A stretch of 64,000 nt of DNA, taken from positions 55,310 through 119,309 of the forward strand of contig JBBAAO010000002.1 in the NCBI GenBank assembly GCA_041658205.1. Reading direction: 5' to 3'. The notes beneath the pieces were generated by a model. That model was not told the DNA's origin. It saw nothing but the letters and a program-made list of their open reading frames with translations, and searched no databases. The translations under genes and the position numbers were made by a program. This stretch comes from Bacteroidota bacterium (GTDB taxonomy: Bacteria > Bacteroidota > Ignavibacteria > UBA10030 > UBA8401). This document shows, piece by piece, positions 11,928-35,240 of the stretch. Each line of letters opens with the position of its first letter. Positions within the stretch are counted from its first letter, which is position 1.

Positions 11928-13319
11928 CTACTTCCCGATACAAAAATTAGAAAAAATGTTGTTTAAAATGTCATCAGGGGTGGTCAATCCAATAATCTCT
12001 CCAAGATAATTAAGCGCACCCCTCAAATCAACCGCAGCAAAATCACCGCCAAGTCCTTCATTGACAGTTTGTTTCGCTGCGGCAATAGAAACCAGAGCTT
12101 TCTCTAAAGCATCTTTATGTCTGACGTTTGTAATTGTTACAGAAGAAGCTGTTGAATCATGACGAGGAATTGCAACATCTATCAATTTTTGTTTTAAGGA
12201 TTGTATTCCTTGATGAGTTTTGCAGGAGATCCAAACGGGTGAAATTTTGCTTAAAACATTTATAGCGTCACATTTAATGTCAGATTTGTTCAACACCAAA
12301 AGAACTGATTTAGCATCATGGTATTGGTTGAATATTTTATCGTACAACGTAATATCTTCTGTTGAAACTAGTATCGAGCTGTCAATAAGAATTACGATAA
12401 CATCTGAAGAATCTATCGCCTTTGATGTCCTTTTTATTCCCTCGATTTCAATTGAGTCATTAGATTCTCTTAATCCAGCCGTATCATTAAAGATGAATTC
12501 TATTCCATCAAGATGGATACTCTCTTCAATGGTGTCCCTAGTTGTTCCAGGAATATCACTTACTATAGCTCTCTCCTCTTGTAGCAAGACATTTAGGAGA
12601 CTTGATTTTCCCGCATTAGGTTTTCCAACTAACGCTACTTTAATACCCTCCCTGATGACTTTTCCTTCCTGATAGCTGGAAGACAACTCTTTTATGGATA
12701 ATTCAACGTGGTCAAGGTTTTTGATAATCTTATTTTTTTCTATTAAAGTAATTCCTTCTTGGGAAAAATCTAGTTCCAGTTCCAACAAAGAACAAATATT
12801 AAGAATCTCTTCCCTAAGGGATTGCACCTTCTTTGATAGCTTCCCGCTTAACTGGTCCACCGATGCTTTGTGTGATTTTTCAGACTTTGAGTGAATGATG
12901 TCTGCAACGGCTTCCGCTTGAGTTAGATCCATTTTTCCATGAAGAAATGCTCTCAATGTAAATTCACCAGGACCGGCAGGACGAGCACCATATGAATATA
13001 GTAGAATTAAAATTTTCTGAGAGACGAAATACCCACCATGAGAACTAATTTCTACAACATTCTCTCCGGTAAAAGAATTTGGCGAGCGGAACACCGAAAC
13101 TAGGACGGTGTCAATTGTTTCACGTGAAACTGGGTGAACAATTGTTCCATAATGAATTGAGTGAGAAGTTGAATCTTGAACAGTAGTTGTTCCCCGGAAA
13201 ACGGTATCAACAATAGGAAAAGCGGCGTTCCCGCTAATACGTATAACGGATATACCACCAATTCCAATCGGTGTTGCAATAGCGGCAATAGTCTCGTTCG
13301 TGATTGATAAAGAGTGCAT
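11928..13319 (-). CDS. mnmE: tRNA modification GTPase MnmE (TrmE)
   Basis: 463 aa; G-domain 'GKPNAGKSSLLN' and C-terminal 'CIGK' motif. Confidence 0.95.
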   Translation of the reverse strand: MHSLSITNETIAAIATPIGIGGISVIRISGNAAFPIVDTVFRGTTTVQDSTSHSIHYGTIVHPVSRETIDTVLVSVFRSPNSFTGENVVEISSHGGYFVSQKILILLYSYGARPAGPGEFTLRAFLHGKMDLTQAEAVADIIHSKSEKSHKASVDQLSGKLSKKVQSLREEILNICSLLELELDFSQEGITLIEKNKIIKNLDHVELSIKELSSSYQEGKVIREGIKVALVGKPNAGKSSLLNVLLQEERAIVSDIPGTTRDTIEESIHLDGIEFIFNDTAGLRESNDSIEIEGIKRTSKAIDSSDVIVILIDSSILVSTEDITLYDKIFNQYHDAKSVLLVLNKSDIKCDAINVLSKISPVWISCKTHQGIQSLKQKLIDVAIPRHDSTASSVTITNVRHKDALEKALVSIAAAKQTVNEGLGGDFAAVDLRGALNYLGEIIGLTTPDDILNNIFSNFCIGK

Positions 13320-13429
13320 AAAAAGAAAAATTTTTCAAAGATACGAAATTTTTTCTTGACAACGGAATGAAATGTTATATCTTATATATGTGTAACTCAG
13401 TTGCACTACTAACGATTAACGACAAAAGA

Positions 13430-13579
13430 ATGCCCGCATACAACAAACATACAGAGAACATATCGAAACGCTCACGCGTTCGCGTTGTTGCTGTGCCTGT
13501 GGCTCTCCTTCCGCTGAGCGGCATTATTATTCTTTTGGGAATTACATTTGCGATTCTACGCCTAATTATTATTAGCTAA
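13430..13579 (+). CDS. candidate ilv-leu leader peptide (49 aa from internal ATG; Ile/Leu/Val-rich tail)
   Basis: C-terminal 34 residues 'RVRVVAVPVALLPLSGIIILLGITFAILRLIIIS' contain 19 Ile/Leu/Val. It lies directly upstream of ilvB. The longer in-frame start at 13367 lies 6 nt downstream of a TTGACA -35-like hexamer and would be upstream of the inferred transcript start. Confidence 0.4.
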   Translation: MPAYNKHTENISKRSRVRVVAVPVALLPLSGIIILLGITFAILRLIIIS

Positions 13580-13586
13580 GAATACG

Positions 13587-13692
13587 CAGAGGTTACTCCC
13601 AAAAACAAATCACACATCCACCAACTAGAAACACGTGAGAAATAAAATCAGGGCGTAACCTCTGAACCGAGGTTGTGTATCGCTTTTTTTAT
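13587..13692 (+). promoter_or_regulatory. candidate transcription attenuator with mutually exclusive antiterminator and terminator
   Basis: cagaggttac (13587-13596) is perfectly complementary to gtaacctctg (13655-13664). The same downstream segment also forms aacctc/tgaacc/gaggtt (13657-13674) plus gcg...cgc, followed by a T-run (13684-13690) just before ilvB. Confidence 0.4.
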
Positions 13693-13706
13693 TTTTCAGG
13701 TGTCCT

Positions 13707-15473
13707 ATGACTCAACATACTTCTCCTTCTTCCCCGCAACGGCAAATGACCGGCGCAGAAATTTTTGTTCGATCGTTGATCGAAGAAAAAGTGGATATCG
13801 TATTCGGTTATCCGGGAGGAGCCGTTATAGGTATCTATGACGCTCTGCACGATATCTCAGATATTAAACATATCCTTACCCGTCACGAGCAAGGTGCTGT
13901 CCACGCTGCTGAAGGATACGCAAAAGCGAGCGGCAAACCGGGCGTTGCATTGGTAACTTCGGGACCCGGCGCCACCAATACCGTTACTGGAATTGCGGAT
14001 GCTTATATGGATTCCATTCCGATCGTTGTCTTCACAGGACAAGTTGCTCTGAAGTTGATCGGTAACGATGCATTTCAAGAGGCAGATATTGTCGGCATCA
14101 CTCGCCCAATCACCAAACACAATTATCTCGTCCGCGATGTGAATGAACTTGCTGCAACAATTAAAGAAGCATTCTATGTTGCCACCACCGGTCGTCCGGG
14201 TCCGGTTCTTGTCGATCTTCCGAAAGATGTGATGGCGACAAAAACCGTATTCAGTTATCCCAAGACAGTAAAGATGCGTTCCTATGTCCCGCATGTTGAA
14301 GGACATCAAAAACAATTGGACAAAGCAATAGCATTAATTGCGAAGGCAAAACGTCCTGTGTTATATGTAGGAGGCGGAACAATTCTTTCCAACGCCGCGG
14401 AAGAACTGACAAAGTTTGCACACAAAACAAAAATTCCGGTGACGACAACACTTCATGGTCTCGGTGCTTTTCCAGAAACGGATGAGCTCTCGCTCGGCAT
14501 GTTGGGAATGCACGGCACATGGTATTCCAACACGGCGGTGAATTATTGCGATTTGCTAATCGCAGTCGGCGCAAGGTTTGATGATCGCGTGACAGGAAAG
14601 ACCGATGCGTTCGCCCCCGAAGCGAAGAAGATTCATATCGATGTCGATCCATCAAATATCAGTAAAAATGTAAAGGTGGATGTACCGATTGTCGGTGACG
14701 TGAAAAGAGTGTTGCAACAATTGCTGCCGTCTGTTAGTCCATTGGATACAAAAGATTGGATTCAAACAATTAAAAATTGGAAAGAGGAACATCCGCTTCG
14801 ATATAAAAGCGGAAAATATATTCGGATGCAGCATGTCATCCGGAAAATTTCAGAGGCAACAAAAGGGAAGGCGATAATGGTGAGTGATGTTGGTCAGCAT
14901 CAAATGTGGATGGCCCAATTTTATCAATATATTTATCCGCGTACGCATTTAACATCCGGTGGACTCGGCACTATGGGATTTTCACTTCCGGCATCGATGG
15001 GTGCGGCGTTTGCTCGGAAAGATTTTCCAATCATCTCTATGAGCGGGGACGGGGGAATACAGATGAATATTCAAGAACTCGCAACCATCCGTGAGCATAA
15101 CGTCCCTGTGAAAATATTGATCATGAACAACGGGTATCTCGGCATGGTAAGGCAATGGCAAGAGTTGTTCTGGCGAAAACGATATTCTCACGTAGAAATG
15201 TTCGGTCCTGATTACGTAAAATTGGCCGAAGCATATGGTATTCCCGGATTTCGAGTAACCTTGACAGATGAGGTAGATAATGTTGTCAATAAAATGCTTG
15301 AAATCGATGGCCCCGTACTCGTAGAATTCAAAGTGGTAAAAGAAGAAAATGTTTATCCGATGATTCCGGCAGGGCAGACATATCATGAAATTATTGATGT
15401 ACCGGATAATACAGCAACAATTGAAGATGAACAAGAACGTGATCTTGAAATGATCACTATTACCAAAGGATAA
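13707..15473 (+). CDS. ilvB: acetolactate synthase large (catalytic) subunit
   Basis: 588 aa; TPP-enzyme motifs 'GYPGGAVIGIYDAL' and 'TSGPGATN'. Confidence 0.95.
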   Translation: MTQHTSPSSPQRQMTGAEIFVRSLIEEKVDIVFGYPGGAVIGIYDALHDISDIKHILTRHEQGAVHAAEGYAKASGKPGVALVTSGPGATNTVTGIADAYMDSIPIVVFTGQVALKLIGNDAFQEADIVGITRPITKHNYLVRDVNELAATIKEAFYVATTGRPGPVLVDLPKDVMATKTVFSYPKTVKMRSYVPHVEGHQKQLDKAIALIAKAKRPVLYVGGGTILSNAAEELTKFAHKTKIPVTTTLHGLGAFPETDELSLGMLGMHGTWYSNTAVNYCDLLIAVGARFDDRVTGKTDAFAPEAKKIHIDVDPSNISKNVKVDVPIVGDVKRVLQQLLPSVSPLDTKDWIQTIKNWKEEHPLRYKSGKYIRMQHVIRKISEATKGKAIMVSDVGQHQMWMAQFYQYIYPRTHLTSGGLGTMGFSLPASMGAAFARKDFPIISMSGDGGIQMNIQELATIREHNVPVKILIMNNGYLGMVRQWQELFWRKRYSHVEMFGPDYVKLAEAYGIPGFRVTLTDEVDNVVNKMLEIDGPVLVEFKVVKEENVYPMIPAGQTYHEIIDVPDNTATIEDEQERDLEMITITKG

Positions 15474-21984: not shown

Positions 21985-22431
21985 ATGAAACTAAAGTTCA
22001 TTGTGTTCATACTGTTCTTCGCTCTTCAGAGTTCATTTGCACAAAAAAAACAGATGGACAAAGCGAATACAATATTTGTGCAATTGAATGGTATCAAACA
22101 ACAGACAGGACAAGTAATGTTGAGCCTGTTCAACAAAGATGAAGGATTCCCGACGCATCCCGAAAAAGCATTTCGGTGGAGCAAAGCGAAAGTAACATCT
22201 TCATCCTTGATCATTAGTTTTGACGGACTTCCGCCGGGTGCATATGCAATTGCCGTAGTGCACGATGAAAATTCAAATGATGTGATGGATAGAAATTGGC
22301 TTGGGTTTCCGGAAGAACCGTACGGAATATCAAACAATGCAACAGGCACATTTAGTCCTCCAAAATTTGAAGAGGCAAAGTTTACCGTTACCGGAAAACG
22401 CGATACGATAAAGATTGAAATGCAGCCGTAA
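21985..22431 (+). CDS. secreted DUF2141-family protein
   Basis: Signal peptide 'FILFFALQSSFAQ'; core 'GQVMLSLFNKDEGFP...AIAVVHDENSNDVMDRNWLGFPEEPYG' matches DUF2141. Confidence 0.6.
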   Translation: MKLKFIVFILFFALQSSFAQKKQMDKANTIFVQLNGIKQQTGQVMLSLFNKDEGFPTHPEKAFRWSKAKVTSSSLIISFDGLPPGAYAIAVVHDENSNDVMDRNWLGFPEEPYGISNNATGTFSPPKFEEAKFTVTGKRDTIKIEMQP

Positions 22432-23555: not shown

Positions 23556-23599
23556 GTCCGCACATGTGAACGATCTTGCGACCGTTCCGACAAAACTCA

Positions 23600-25168
23600 A
23601 TGAAAACAAAAATATTCACATACGATACGACGCTTCGTGATGGAACTCAAGGCGAGGAAGTTTCCTTTTCCGCCGAAGATAAAATCAAGATTGCCAAACG
23701 GCTGGATGCATTTGGCATTGATTACATCGAAGGGGGATGGCCGGGTTCCAATCCAAAAGATATGGAGTTCTTTGAGAGAGCTCGAACGATTCAATTTGTG
23801 CACGCAAAGATTGCGGCATTTGGCAGCACGCGCCGGGCAAAAAATCGCGTTGAAGATGATGCAAATATCAAAGCGCTGCTGGATGCACAAACTCCTGTCG
23901 TAACGATTTTTGGAAAAACGTGGCTGTTGCATGTGAAAGAAGCATTGCAGATCACTGAGGAAGAAAATCTCGAAATCATTTCCGATTCCGTCGCGTATCT
24001 GAAAAAGAATAGTAAAGAAGTAGTGTATGATGCGGAACATTTCTTTGACGGATATAAAACTGACAAAGCATATGCCATCAAAACACTGCAAGCAGCGCAG
24101 TCTTCCGGCGCGAACGTGATTGTTCTGTGCGACACAAACGGCGGAACGATGCCATGGGAAATTTCTTCAATCGTTGATGAGATCAAACCATTCATCACGG
24201 TGCAGCTCGGCATTCATACGCATAACGATTGCGAACTTGGTGTGGCAAATTCGCTTGCCGCTATCAAATCCGGTGCGATACATGTGCAGGGAACAATCAA
24301 CGGATACGGTGAACGTTGTGGCAATGCTAATCTCTGTTCCATCCTCCCAAATCTTGAAATCAAGTTAGGCAACGAAACCGTTGGGAGCGAACAATTAAAA
24401 AAGTTGACAGACCTTTCCCGATACGTAAGCGAATTAGCAAATTTGAAACACAGAAAAAATCAGGCTTATGTCGGTGAAAGCGCCTTTGCACACAAAGGGG
24501 GCGTTCACGTCAGTGCGGTGATGAAAACACCGAAGACATATGAGCACGTTCAGCCGGAAGTTGTTGGTAATGTGCGCAGAGTACTTGTTTCTGATCTTTC
24601 AGGAAGAAGCAATGTGTTGTATAAAGCGGAAGAGCTTGGATTGAAGATCGACGACAAATCTCCCGCCGCTCAGAAAGTTGTGGAAGAATTGAAGGAGATG
24701 GAGCATTACGGTTACTATTTTGAAGATGCGGAAGCATCGTTTGAATTGCTGGTAAAGAAACATACCGGTGAGATCAAAAAATTATTTGAACTTGAGCGAT
24801 TTAAAATCAGCATTCACAAAGATTCCGACAGCAGTGATGCGCGAAGCGAAGCGATGATTAAAATTCGTGTGGGCGACGAGACGGAAATGACCGCTGCGGA
24901 AGGAAATGGTCCGGTGAACGCAATGGACAAAGCCTTGCGCAAAGCGCTTGAACGATTTTATCCTCAATTAAAAGAAATTCAGTTGACGGATTATAAGGTG
25001 CGAGTGCTCGATTCTCAGAATGCTACCGCAGCAAAAGTTCGTGTATTAATCGAAACAAAAAACGGAACATCATCCTGGAACACCGTTGGTGTTTCATCGG
25101 ATGTTGTTGACGCCAGTTGGAAGGCGTTGGTCGATTCCATCACCTATCACTTATTAAAGAGGAAGTAA
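23600..25168 (+). CDS. cimA: citramalate synthase-type LeuA-family enzyme (CimA/LeuA2 subfamily)
   Basis: '[16 protein letters not shown]' with '...[16 protein letters not shown]' and a C-terminal LeuA-dimerisation-like domain. ORF-track start 23576; the Met at 23600 is preferred. Confidence 0.7.
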
Positions 25169-31823: not shown

Positions 31824-33215
31824 ATGCTTACAATGAAATTTGGCGGAACATCGGTCGGCGATGTTCCCAGACTGCAGGAAGTTGTTTCAATCGTCAAACA
31901 ATTTTTGAAAGACCAGCCGGTGGTTGTTGCTTCGGCGATGGGAGGACTGACCAATGTACTGCTCGATACAGCACAAAAAGCGGTCGAACGGAAGTCCGGT
32001 GAAGTGAACAATGCCATTGCAGCAATTCGAGAAAGGCACTTACAAATTGCAAACGCCATGATTCATGATTATCCCCGGCGTGCTGCGCTGATCAAAAATC
32101 AACAGGATTCGATCAATGAACTAGCTAATTTCTATCATGGCGTGAGTCTTTTGCGTGAACTTTCGCCCCGTTCACTTGATGCGATTGCATCATTCGGAGA
32201 AATCCTATCATGTATGCAGATTGCTGCTATTTTTGAGGAAAACGGCATCAAATCCCAATTTATTGATGCGCGAACAATTATTCAAACCGACGATAATTTT
32301 GGAGAAGCTTCTGTCGATTTCTCCGTTTCGAATAAAAAAATCAACGAAACAATTTCACCACTTGTATCCAAAGGGATTGTTCCTGTTGTGACCGGATTTA
32401 TTTCGTCTACAGAGGATGGAATAACAACAACAATTGGTCGAAGTGGTTCGGATTATACCGGCTCAATTGTTGGTTCTGCCATTAACAGTAAAGAAATCTG
32501 GATCTGGACGGATGTTGACGGTGTTATGACTGCCGATCCTCGATTTGTCAAAGGGGCACAAGTGCTCTCGGAAATTTCCTACCGCGAAGCAGCGGAGATG
32601 AGTTATTTTGGTGCAAAGGTTATTCATCCAAAGACAATGGTTCCGGCAATCGAGAAAAAGATTCCGATTCGGATTAAGAATACATTTAATCCGGAACACC
32701 AAGGAACGCTTATTTCAGCAAAACCGAATCACGGAGGAACATCAGCAAAAACGGTGACATCCATCGACAATCTTGCCATTATTGCAATTGAAGGAAATGG
32801 AATGATCGGCGTGCCGGGTGTTTCTGCAAGAATTTTTTCAGCATTAGCACGCGCTCAAGTAAACGTCATGATGATATCGCAGGCGTCATCGGAACATAAT
32901 GTCTGTATTCTTGTTCCCAAAAAAGATAGTGCGAACGGTGTAAAAGTGCTGCGGGATGAATTCAGTATTGATATTGCAAAGAAAATTATTGATGCTGTTA
33001 CTGTAAAAGAGACCGTTTCCATTGTTGCGGTGGTTGGAGAAGGAATGATTGGCACGAAAGGAATTGCCGGGAGAACATTTGATGCAGTTGCAAAAGCAGA
33101 TGTGAATATCATTGCGATTGCACAAGGCTCGTCCGAATTGAATATCTCGTTCGTTGTTGATCAAAAAGATGCCAAAAAATCGGTGCAGGCTGTGCACGAT
33201 TCGTTTTATCAATAG
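31824..33215 (+). CDS. aspartate kinase (monofunctional, tandem ACT domains)
   Basis: 'MKFGGTSVGD' kinase N-terminus; two C-terminal ACT regions; alternative start at 31833. Confidence 0.9.
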   Translation: MLTMKFGGTSVGDVPRLQEVVSIVKQFLKDQPVVVASAMGGLTNVLLDTAQKAVERKSGEVNNAIAAIRERHLQIANAMIHDYPRRAALIKNQQDSINELANFYHGVSLLRELSPRSLDAIASFGEILSCMQIAAIFEENGIKSQFIDARTIIQTDDNFGEASVDFSVSNKKINETISPLVSKGIVPVVTGFISSTEDGITTTIGRSGSDYTGSIVGSAINSKEIWIWTDVDGVMTADPRFVKGAQVLSEISYREAAEMSYFGAKVIHPKTMVPAIEKKIPIRIKNTFNPEHQGTLISAKPNHGGTSAKTVTSIDNLAIIAIEGNGMIGVPGVSARIFSALARAQVNVMMISQASSEHNVCILVPKKDSANGVKVLRDEFSIDIAKKIIDAVTVKETVSIVAVVGEGMIGTKGIAGRTFDAVAKADVNIIAIAQGSSELNISFVVDQKDAKKSVQAVHDSFYQ

Positions 33216-33311: not shown

Positions 33312-33548
33312 ATGCAAAAATATCAAAGCATCAGCTGTTCGTATTATGATCAACTGGAAGCATATGCGACAAAACGCACACACTGTTCCATCATCTATAG
33401 TGATGATTCAGAAAAAATTATCGATGGTGTTATTGTGGATGTCTATGCAAAAGAAGGTGCGGAATATTTAAAACTTGACAACGGAACCGTGATTCGATTG
33501 GATTATCTTCTATCGATCAACGGTATTCCTGTCAGCAATATTTGCTAA
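33312..33548 (+). CDS. rof: Rof/YaeO-like Rho-binding antiterminator family protein
   Basis: 78 aa; 'YQSISCSYYDQLEAYA...EGAEYLKLDNGTVIRLDYLLSI' aligns along its length to E. coli Rof ('YQPINCDDYDNLELAC...KNVEYLVV...ELRLDKITSF'). Confidence 0.7.
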   Translation: MQKYQSISCSYYDQLEAYATKRTHCSIIYSDDSEKIIDGVIVDVYAKEGAEYLKLDNGTVIRLDYLLSINGIPVSNIC

Positions 33549-34853: not shown

Positions 34854-35240
34854 ATGACTGTCGAAAATCTCAATCGCATTTCGAAGACAATTCTTGATGC
34901 GTGTATTACTGTTCATCGGGAAATGGGGCCTGGTTTATTAGAATCAATTTATGAGCTATGTCTGTTGGATGAGCTTCAACAAAGAGGATTAGTAGTTGCA
35001 AGCCAAGTTTCAATTCCTTTGAGGTTTAAGGGAAAAGAGCTATCCAAAGATTTTCGTATCGATATTCTTGTTGAAAACGAAATAGTTTTAGAAATTAAAG
35101 CGGTTGACATTTTGCTGCCAGTACATGAAGCACAAATAATCTCATACTTAAAGTTAACAGATAAGAGATTAGGCTTTTTGATCAATTTTAATGTTCCGTT
35201 ATTAAAAAATGGTTTTAAACGATTCGTTCACAATTTTTAA
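34854..35240 (+). CDS. GxxExxY family protein (PD-(D/E)XK-like fold)
   Basis: 128 aa; 'GPGLLESIYE' GxxExxY motif plus conserved 'RIDILVENEIVLEIK'; visibly AT-richer than neighbours. Confidence 0.8.
   Translation: MTVENLNRISKTILDACITVHREMGPGLLESIYELCLLDELQQRGLVVASQVSIPLRFKGKELSKDFRIDILVENEIVLEIKAVDILLPVHEAQIISYLKLTDKRLGFLINFNVPLLKNGFKRFVHNF

Follow-up and report, generated by a model that had tools for sequence, protein, structure and literature searches.

A putative Ile/Leu leader-peptide attenuator upstream of an ilvB-led amino acid biosynthesis cluster in an Ignavibacteria genome, with relatives in neighbouring phyla

The sequence considered here is a 64,000-nt stretch (the window, on whose numbering all positions are given) of contig JBBAAO010000002.1, from a member of the Ignavibacteria. 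Between mnmE (minus strand, 11928-13319) and ilvB (plus strand, 13707-15473) it contains a putative leader-peptide attenuator of the amino acid biosynthesis cluster that begins with ilvB. An earlier note on this DNA, made from the sequence alone, proposed ribosome-mediated attenuation at this site and described mnmE and ilvB as divergent, which their strands confirm; the intergenic gap, put there at 356 bp, is 387 bp long (13320-13706). By NCBIfam, the plus-strand cluster comprises ilvB, ilvN, gltB, gltD, ilvC, cimA, a 3-deoxy-D-arabino-heptulosonate 7-phosphate (DAHP) synthase gene, leuA, leuC, leuD, proC, leuB, an aspartate kinase gene, thrC and thrB. These assignments bear out the glt, aro, pro and thr genes that had been claimed for the cluster, all of them co-directional. 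As the genes share one direction and the gaps between them are small, a single transcript of approximately 22 kb over the cluster is plausible.

A consensus scan of the gap reveals a sigma-70-type promoter, TTGACA-N16-TATCTT, at 13356-13383 on the plus strand (10/12 matches), from which a transcript start near 13390 is predicted. The hexamers and the 16-nt spacing are identical in the window and six relatives whose IlvB proteins are 75-90% identical, and the same scan detected no promoter-like site between this promoter and ilvB. Downstream lies the leader ORF (plus strand, 13430-13579), which encodes the 49-residue peptide MPAYNKHTENISKRSRVRVVAVPVALLPLSGIIILLGITFAILRLIIIS and is supported by a conserved start, database homologues and coding periodicity. 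The earlier note had drawn this ORF from 13367 to 13579; a frame of that extent, ending in RVRVVAVPVALLPLSGIIILLGITFAILRLIIIS, is present in the sequence and in the list of ORFs, but the conserved start is 13430. The ATG at 13367, which would give a product of 70 aa, precedes the conserved -10 box, and most relatives lack it; it was rejected as the leader start because the conserved promoter puts the start of the transcript near 13390. The ATG at 13430 is kept in all relatives compared, and the length of 49 codons is shared by the window and two of them (L084 and L082). The last 34 codons are rich in branched-chain residues as claimed, although a scripted count gives 20 (8 Ile, 7 Leu and 5 Val) and not 19.

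A protein search returned 16 homologues of the leader peptide, 12 of exactly 49 aa, three of 63-75 aa with longer N-terminal calls and one of 35 aa; one of the 16 is annotated by NCBI as a hypothetical protein. Their N-termini are variable, and the C-terminal 25 residues form an almost invariant tail, LLPL[SGD]GIIILLGITFAIL[RG]L[TIL]II[GS]. Amongst 14 close sequences (the window and 13 relatives), pairwise identity at codon positions 1/2/3 is 0.63/0.69/0.63 for leader codons 2-16, which show no periodicity, 0.81/0.85/0.59 for codons 17-28, which show coding periodicity, and 0.91/0.95/0.79 for codons 29-49, where all positions are conserved. For the first 120 conserved ilvB codons the corresponding values are 0.96/0.99/0.47, third positions being near saturation. 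The leader ORF appears to be translated, since codons 17-28 have coding periodicity and the C-terminal indels amongst relatives, which are of 3 or 6 nt, preserve the frame. That third positions are 0.79 identical in codons 29-49 and just 0.47 in ilvB points to an additional RNA-level constraint on the C-terminal third of the ORF, where predicted hairpins overlap it.

A conserved tail of this kind could also mean that the ORF encodes a functional small membrane protein with its own terminator, and that its link with ilvB is positional. The layout is transmembrane-like, with a basic N-terminus and a hydrophobic tail of approximately 30 residues, and both the near-invariance of the C-terminal 25 residues in the 16 homologues and the NCBI annotation of one of them would suit such a protein. 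However, the invariance extends to third codon positions, the N-terminal 15 codons lack codon periodicity and a Pfam search with the leader peptide found no family. The absence of a promoter-like site between the 13356 promoter and ilvB also argues against it, as does the position of the ORF, which across phyla is always before the first ilv gene, whether this is ilvB or ilvD. Moreover, the covarying long-range helix described below would be left without a role. We regard the membrane protein explanation as very unlikely.

The plus-strand RNA between the C-terminal part of the leader ORF and ilvB can form three competing helices. Minimum free energy (MFE) folds place region 1 (13533-13557) within the leader ORF, as the 5' arm of the 1:2 hairpin; region 2 (13579-13604), seen in the MFE folds and as an inverted repeat, provides the 3' arm of this hairpin and, with its sub-segment 13587-13600, also the 5' arm of the antiterminator. 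Region 3 (13651-13664, GGGCGUAACCUCUG), supported by an inverted repeat, by folds and by comparative pairing, is common to the antiterminator, which it forms with region 2, and the terminator, which it forms with region 4 (13669-13683, GAGGUUGUGUAUCGC). Region 4 is the 3' arm of the terminator in a predicted hairpin at 13650-13686, with a U7 tract (13684-13690) directly 3' of it. Regions 2 and 3 are separated in part by a C/A-rich, G-poor spacer (13601-13631), poorly conserved in alignments, which lies in the loop of the 2:3 helix.

The predicted stabilities are -25.6 kcal/mol (z -6.1) for 1:2 (13533-13557 with 13579-13604), -22.6 kcal/mol (z -5.9) for 2:3 (13587-13600 with 13651-13664) and -12.5 kcal/mol (z -2.1) for 3:4 (13651-13662 with 13669-13686), that is, in the order needed by a classical attenuator. 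The pairings on which the earlier note built its proposal were all recovered. The segment cagaggttac (13587-13596), which starts at the eighth nt after the stop codon, is complementary to gtaacctctg (13655-13664), and the complementarity extends to 14 nt at 93% (13587-13600 and 13651-13664). The composite stem of aacctc/gaggtt (13657-13662 and 13669-13674) and gcg/cgc (13653-13655 and 13681-13683) abuts the T7 run, which was said to lie about 15 nt before the ilvB ATG and by measurement lies 16 nt before it; a terminator scan called a 10-pair stem at 13653-13678. The fold check that the note had suggested, run on 13420-13706, gave z = -4.76, with none of 200 shuffled sequences folding as well, and the competing conformers were found.

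As both use region 3, the antiterminator 2:3 and the terminator 3:4 are mutually exclusive. In all 14 close sequences the free RNA is predicted to adopt 1:2 together with the terminator; when region 1 is masked, the modelled probability of the antiterminator is at least 0.78 in every one of them and that of the terminator 0.00. A footprint scan, in which a ribosome footprint was masked codon by codon and the RNA refolded, located the codons at which a stall would have this effect. The terminator is kept with the A site at any codon up to 31, codon 32 (13523) gives an intermediate fold, and at codons 33-49 (plus strand, 13526-13576; I I L L G I T F A I L R L I I I S) 1:2 and the terminator are lost and the antiterminator forms. 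Exceptions occur at 13568 and 13571, where the folds pair around the masked footprint and are sterically unrealistic.

Codons 33-49 hold seven of the leader's eight AUU Ile codons, two rare CUA Leu codons, one CUU and one UUG, and codon 32 is also AUU; 12 of the 17 codons from 32 to 48, the last before the final Ser, thus specify Ile (eight AUU) or Leu (four), and none specifies Val. CUA is the rarest Leu codon in the genes of the window, at 4% of Leu codons. Because just codons 33-49, with Ile and Leu and no Val, sit where a stall alters the modelled fold, the element reads as an Ile/Leu sensor. The leader had been described as an Ile/Leu/Val leader; its Ile and Leu codons do fall in the structure-sensitive stretch, but its Val codons lie outside it. 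A Val/Ala-rich segment, RVRVVAVPV (13478-13501, codons 17-24), is conserved at the amino acid level with coding periodicity.

The IlvB sequences nearest to that of the window (75-90% identity) belong to metagenome-assembled genomes with the label Bacteroidota or Ignavibacteriae. In 11/11 fetched homologue loci the leader lies between mnmE and ilvB, and all four loci long enough to show them have mnmG upstream and ilvN and gltB downstream. Alignment of the ilvB upstream regions, also suggested in the earlier note, reveals conservation of the Ile/Leu-rich ORF and of the paired segments, with compensatory changes. Amongst the 14 close sequences, both antiterminator arms are nearly invariant around a variable spacer, and region 2 has just two one-sided changes (in L082 and L165); the 2:3 helix is 98.4% paired and at this distance uninformative on covariation. 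In the outer 1:2 helix, where pairing is at 99%, L164 has one double change, from U-A to G-C. Nine pairs of the terminator-state structure have double changes in the close clade, this one included, a number reached by 0/500 shuffles.

Covariation of the antiterminator was assessed in a structure-blind MAFFT alignment of 27 diverse relatives. Here the 2:3 helix is 84% paired, against 25-50% when it is slid, and compensatory double changes occur in 9/13 of its pairs. On four of five covariation measures none of 500 shuffles reaches the observed value, and for the fifth, further pair types, 10/500 do so. Covariation of the 1:2 helix was not significant on this broad alignment, and its register differs between clades.

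A 10-nt inverted repeat within 100 nt is by itself unremarkable, since a few are expected by chance in 64 kb (an estimate), and a generic terminator scan found no enrichment (three, against 1.6 expected from shuffles). It could accordingly be asked whether a hydrophobic ORF and complementary segments have simply coincided in an AT-rich intergenic region. The significance of the complementary segments lies in their being conserved and covarying in relatives: dozens of relatives keep the elements and show covariation in them, the fold z-scores are -4.8 to -6.1 and the ORF scan described below is strand-specific. Chance coincidence, to which we would give next to no credence, is effectively refuted by these comparative sequence data.

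The promoter, the Ile/Leu leader ORF, the 1:2 hairpin, the covarying 2:3 helix and the 3:4 hairpin with its U7 tract are thus all present, in agreement with the logic of ribosome-mediated attenuation. In the mechanism that we propose, transcription would begin at the conserved promoter, near 13390, and a ribosome would translate the 49-codon leader behind RNA polymerase. With Ile and Leu plentiful, the ribosome would reach the stop codon and leave, region 1 would pair with region 2, and region 3 would then pair with region 4, so that hairpin and U7 tract would end transcription 16 nt before ilvB; in this OFF state a long 3' hairpin would also bury the ilvB Shine-Dalgarno sequence. With Ile or Leu scarce, the ribosome would stall in codons 33-49 and cover region 1. 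Region 2 (13587-13600) would then pair with region 3 (13651-13664) upon its emergence, the terminator could not form, and polymerase would read into ilvBN-gltBD-ilvC-cimA-aroF-leuACD-proC-leuB and the downstream asp and thr genes. The basis for the attenuator consists of elements, energies, conservation and covariation, all in silico, and it is on this basis that we consider a leader-peptide attenuator of the ilvB-led cluster, with termination as its main output, to be probable. We infer that charged tRNA-Ile and tRNA-Leu are the signal sensed, and likewise the coupling of translation to transcription, the actual site of termination, the amino acid response and the extent of the transcript.

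Two observations concern the beginning of the leader. Its initiation region, CAAAAGAAUGCC (13423-13434), is complementary to the Gly-Ile-Ile-Ile-Leu-Leu codons (13520-13537), and such a pairing might limit leader translation to one round. In L164, the change of U13534 to G is accompanied by A-to-C changes both at its 1:2 partner and at position -4 relative to the leader start.

Several features weigh against an attenuator of this type. No Shine-Dalgarno sequence precedes the leader ATG, merely an A-rich stretch; 49 codons is above the length of classical leaders (14-32); and the conserved Val codons, at 17-24, lie upstream of the structure-sensitive codons and are without explanation. A ribosome on the stop codon reaches approximately 13589 and so covers, of the 14 nt in the antiterminator arm, about 3, and in this position the modelled antiterminator probability ranges from 0.02 to 0.75 amongst the 14 sequences; the classical block of region 2 by a ribosome at the stop codon is accordingly weak here, with an ambiguous outcome in the model. 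Since so few nt of the arm are masked, termination in times of plenty must rely on release of the ribosome and refolding of 1:2. In equilibrium folding of the window leader with its full 3' region, the long 3' hairpin persists even with region 1 masked, which means that the switch must be kinetic, acting co-transcriptionally. The terminator hairpin itself is modest and, at -12.5 kcal/mol and z -2.1, marginally better than shuffled sequences, and the U-tract is interrupted or short in several close relatives (L162, L163 and L168).

The last two points bear on which step is regulated. A leader-peptide sensor might act chiefly on translation initiation of ilvB, with formation of 2:3 opening a 3' hairpin in which the Shine-Dalgarno sequence is buried. 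The structure concerned is a basal helix beneath the terminator, seen as a 17-nt inverted repeat at 88% and in the MFE structure. Its 5' strand (13632-13648) consists of CACGUGAGAA (13632-13641) and an A-tract, and pairs with the U-tract and the ilvB Shine-Dalgarno region; its 3' strand (13694-13706) includes UUUUCAGGUG (13694-13703), which pairs with CACGUGAGAA, and the Shine-Dalgarno sequence AGGUG (13698-13702), and is followed by the ATG at 13707. Within the variable spacer the 5' strand stands out as a conserved island. The core pairs join 133-142 to 202-211, and most of them (138-206 and 140-204 excepted) have their commonest form in 12-13 of 14 relatives. Within the Shine-Dalgarno sequence the GGTG core is invariant, and AGGTG is found in 13 of 14 close relatives, L171 having GGGTG. 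Distant relatives have a region 3 (CCUCUGGC) with complementarity to the ilvD ribosome-binding region (z -4.5 in L085, -4.0 in L009 and -3.3 in L025). The conserved basal helix and this complementarity, together with the poor conservation of the U-tract in some relatives, would favour a translational output. On the other hand, the window hairpin is followed directly by U7, about half of the 26 relatives examined carry a T5-T8 run 3' of region 3, and the basal helix could persist as a pseudoknot alongside 2:3, so that release of the Shine-Dalgarno sequence is not guaranteed. Translation initiation as the main regulated step is, in our judgement, unlikely. The two modes are not mutually exclusive, and the modelled burial of the ilvB Shine-Dalgarno sequence by the basal helix in the OFF fold suggests that control may be partly translational; the most likely arrangement is termination with added Shine-Dalgarno masking.

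Similar leaders are found well beyond the close relatives, in the Fibrobacteres-Chlorobi-Bacteroidetes (FCB) group. When 160 ilvB loci were scanned for small ORFs in which Ile, Leu and Val make up 61% or more of the last 18 residues, 42 matches fell on the ilv strand and two on the opposite strand. The loci with such leader ORFs carry the labels Ignavibacteria, Melioribacter, Calditrichia (including Caldithrix abyssi), Rhodothermales and Balneolales. The leader stop codon, in the loci examined, mostly falls 100-136 nt upstream of the first ilv gene; most of those lineages have ilvD in this place. Counted over 35 members, Ile accounts for 32% of the last 17 residues, Leu for 31% and Val for 6%, and 23 of the 35 peptides end in Gly. 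Each member has a long-range helix between a segment lying 5-10 nt past the stop codon and one lying 30-70 nt ahead of the gene; when regions 2 and 3 come from one locus their pairing has a mean of -22.8 kcal/mol, and when they come from different loci -14.7.

A covariance model covering the stop codon to region 3 has a single match in the window, exactly at the leader, with 63.9 bits. Its matches elsewhere at E < 0.01 are all upstream of ilv genes, including loci outside those used in model building, and are labelled Ignavibacteria, Melioribacter, Calditrichia and Bacteroidetes, with three unclassified and no non-FCB label. The helix model is supported in Ignavibacteria, Melioribacter and Calditrichia; for Rhodothermales and Balneolales there are just similar ORFs. 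The family precedes either ilvB or ilvD. We propose, tentatively and as somewhat less than an even prospect, that the window element belongs to an old homologous family of Ile/Leu leader ORFs of approximately 35-60 codons with a covarying long-range helix, whose output differs by lineage. The output platform seems to be a terminator in some lineages and, in others, an anti-Shine-Dalgarno-like CCUCU that pairs with the ribosome-binding site. If this is true, the family would offer a natural series in which one sensor has been re-wired between transcriptional and translational attenuation.

In four Ignavibacteriales-type loci (L020, 2314-3000; L022, 2282-2995; L089, 1272-1809; L090, 1910-2480) the leader is followed by approximately 400 nt more of non-coding sequence. 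A second small Ile/Leu-rich ORF is present in L022 and L089, for example LIIILNIRRIIILGI, and by visual reading another, MIIRNLWWLIIISI, is present in L020; in L022 a strong hairpin lies after the second ORF and before ilvB. These four loci may represent tandem attenuators. An Rfam search of L020, L022 and L090 gave no match. Near the ilv leader locus of an Ignavibacteria metagenome-assembled genome there is a SAM riboswitch (RF00162, 86 bits; L009, 691-806, minus strand). Visual reading of sequence upstream of ilvB or ilvD in other loci revealed a unit of approximately 100 nt repeated three times (L016, 1-330), an array of the 8-nt CACAAAAT (L026, approximately 700-760) and an array of the 7-nt GTAAGAA (L021, approximately 960-1020).

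Returning to the window, an A/T palindrome, AAGAAAAATTTT / AAATTTTTTCTT, lies at 13323-13357, flanked by the start of mnmE and by the leader promoter's -35 box, and could be a shared divergent-promoter element or operator. Within the cluster, the citramalate synthase gene cimA (23576-25168; TIGR00977, 776 bits) lies beside leuA; this implies a pyruvate route to isoleucine, which would fit a leader that senses Ile and Leu. The apparent gaps in the cluster were considered as sites of further leaders, which were ruled out, as the gaps hold a DUF2141 protein, a 78-aa ORF and a PDDEXK_3 protein. The DUF2141 protein (21985-22431), which has a signal peptide, and the PDDEXK_3-family protein (34854-35240) are inserted among otherwise purely amino acid-biosynthetic genes. 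The 78-aa ORF (33312-33548), between the aspartate kinase gene and thrC, has a weak Pfam match to ROF, which modulates Rho-dependent termination; the match stays below threshold (E 0.002; 18.6 bits, the cut-off being 27.6). A weak hairpin with a T-rich tail is present at the end of the aspartate kinase gene (33183-33197).

How amino acid biosynthesis is regulated in Ignavibacteriota and neighbouring FCB phyla has scarcely been charted, and most of their members have not been cultured. The element allows re-annotation of a 49-aa 'hypothetical protein' called by genome pipelines, marks operon starts in metagenome-assembled genomes and predicts that the supply of Ile and Leu controls a cluster of branched-chain amino acid (BCAA), glutamate, aromatic, proline and threonine genes. 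The covariance model could be added to RNA family libraries. Melioribacter and Caldithrix are genera with cultured representatives, and the presence of the family in loci labelled Melioribacter and Caldithrix abyssi would make it directly testable there. The mechanism is a classical one, and no principle is overturned.

With regard to catalogued elements, an Rfam search of the whole window at the gathering score gave no match, and a search of 1.5 kb around the leader (12800-14300) at E <= 10 returned noise alone. None of the Rfam leader families (Leu_leader, Thr_leader, ilvB-OMG, Bacteroid-trp and others) was found at the gathering score in 17 related loci. A T-box or metabolite riboswitch was considered and rejected: there is no Rfam match, and within the element conservation is lowest in the spacer that separates regions 2 and 3, which argues against a ligand-binding core at 13601-13631. 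In the searchable full-text literature on attenuation and leader peptides, no description of a BCAA leader turned up for Bacteroidetes, Chlorobi or Ignavibacteria. The abstract of a 2004 comparative-genomics paper by Vitreschak et al. reportedly mentions candidate attenuators in 'Bacteroidetes/Chlorobi', and one of 2010 by Lopatovskaya et al. may also list such candidates.

Leader-peptide control of ilv and leu genes is established in Proteobacteria. In E. coli the ilvGMEDA (ilvL), ilvBN (ivbL) and leu (leuL) operons have leader-peptide attenuators with leaders of 28-32 codons. The window element shares with these a short ORF, placed after the promoter and ahead of the first gene, in which BCAA codons cluster, together with alternative 1:2, 2:3 and 3:4 pairings and a hairpin with a U-run just before the gene; the rare CUA Leu codons recall leuL in particular. 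It differs in that there is no sequence or covariance-model similarity, the leader is longer (49 codons against 28-32), the sensitive codons are for Ile and Leu with no Val, and an extra helix buries the ilvB Shine-Dalgarno sequence. In addition, the stop codon of the window leader is 7 nt before the antiterminator arm, so that a terminating ribosome masks little of it.

Outside Proteobacteria, such control is established or predicted in several groups. In Actinobacteria, the Corynebacterium ilvB-II motif, described by comparative genomics, is a conserved BCAA-rich upstream ORF (uORF) before ilvB (PMC10272879), and an attenuator is reported for C. glutamicum ilvBNC (PMC1262725). Like the window element, these have a BCAA-rich uORF before ilvB that is coupled to a terminator stem. 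Unlike it, they belong to another phylum, have no sequence relation and, in Corynebacterium, have a shorter uORF; the window element has a covarying long-range 2:3 helix around a 50-nt spacer. Leader-peptide control of ilv or leu genes is also described for Leptospira, and the ilvB-OMG motif of Rfam has been re-interpreted as a uORF rich in BCAA and Thr codons (PMC10272879). This motif is ilvB-associated, with a BCAA-rich uORF, and is represented in several phyla, but the window has no match to its model even at E <= 10 in the 1.5-kb search. The S. aureus ilv-leu operon has an experimentally supported leucine-rich attenuator peptide that acts together with CodY (PMC5794164). This too is a BCAA leader peptide outside Proteobacteria before a long ilv-leu operon; S. 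aureus differs in belonging to the Firmicutes, in the involvement of CodY and in the lack of homology.

Within the FCB group, the Bacteroid-trp motif (RF01692) is a leader-peptide-type cis-regulator of Bacteroidetes (Weinberg et al. 2010, PMC2864571). It shares this type of control with the window element, but senses Trp, precedes trp genes and is unrelated in sequence and structure. The remark in the earlier note that it knew of no BCAA attenuator described in the FCB group broadly agrees with the searches of Rfam, Pfam and the literature, with the qualification that this Trp leader is known there and that several ilvB uORF motifs have been reported from other groups. Before adding Firmicutes, Naville and Gautheret (2010) gave leader peptides as known only in Proteobacteria and Actinobacteria (PMC2965389). 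Placed beside all of these systems, the window element is probably a real and conserved attenuator of the classical type, within a wider FCB family that appears not to have been catalogued.

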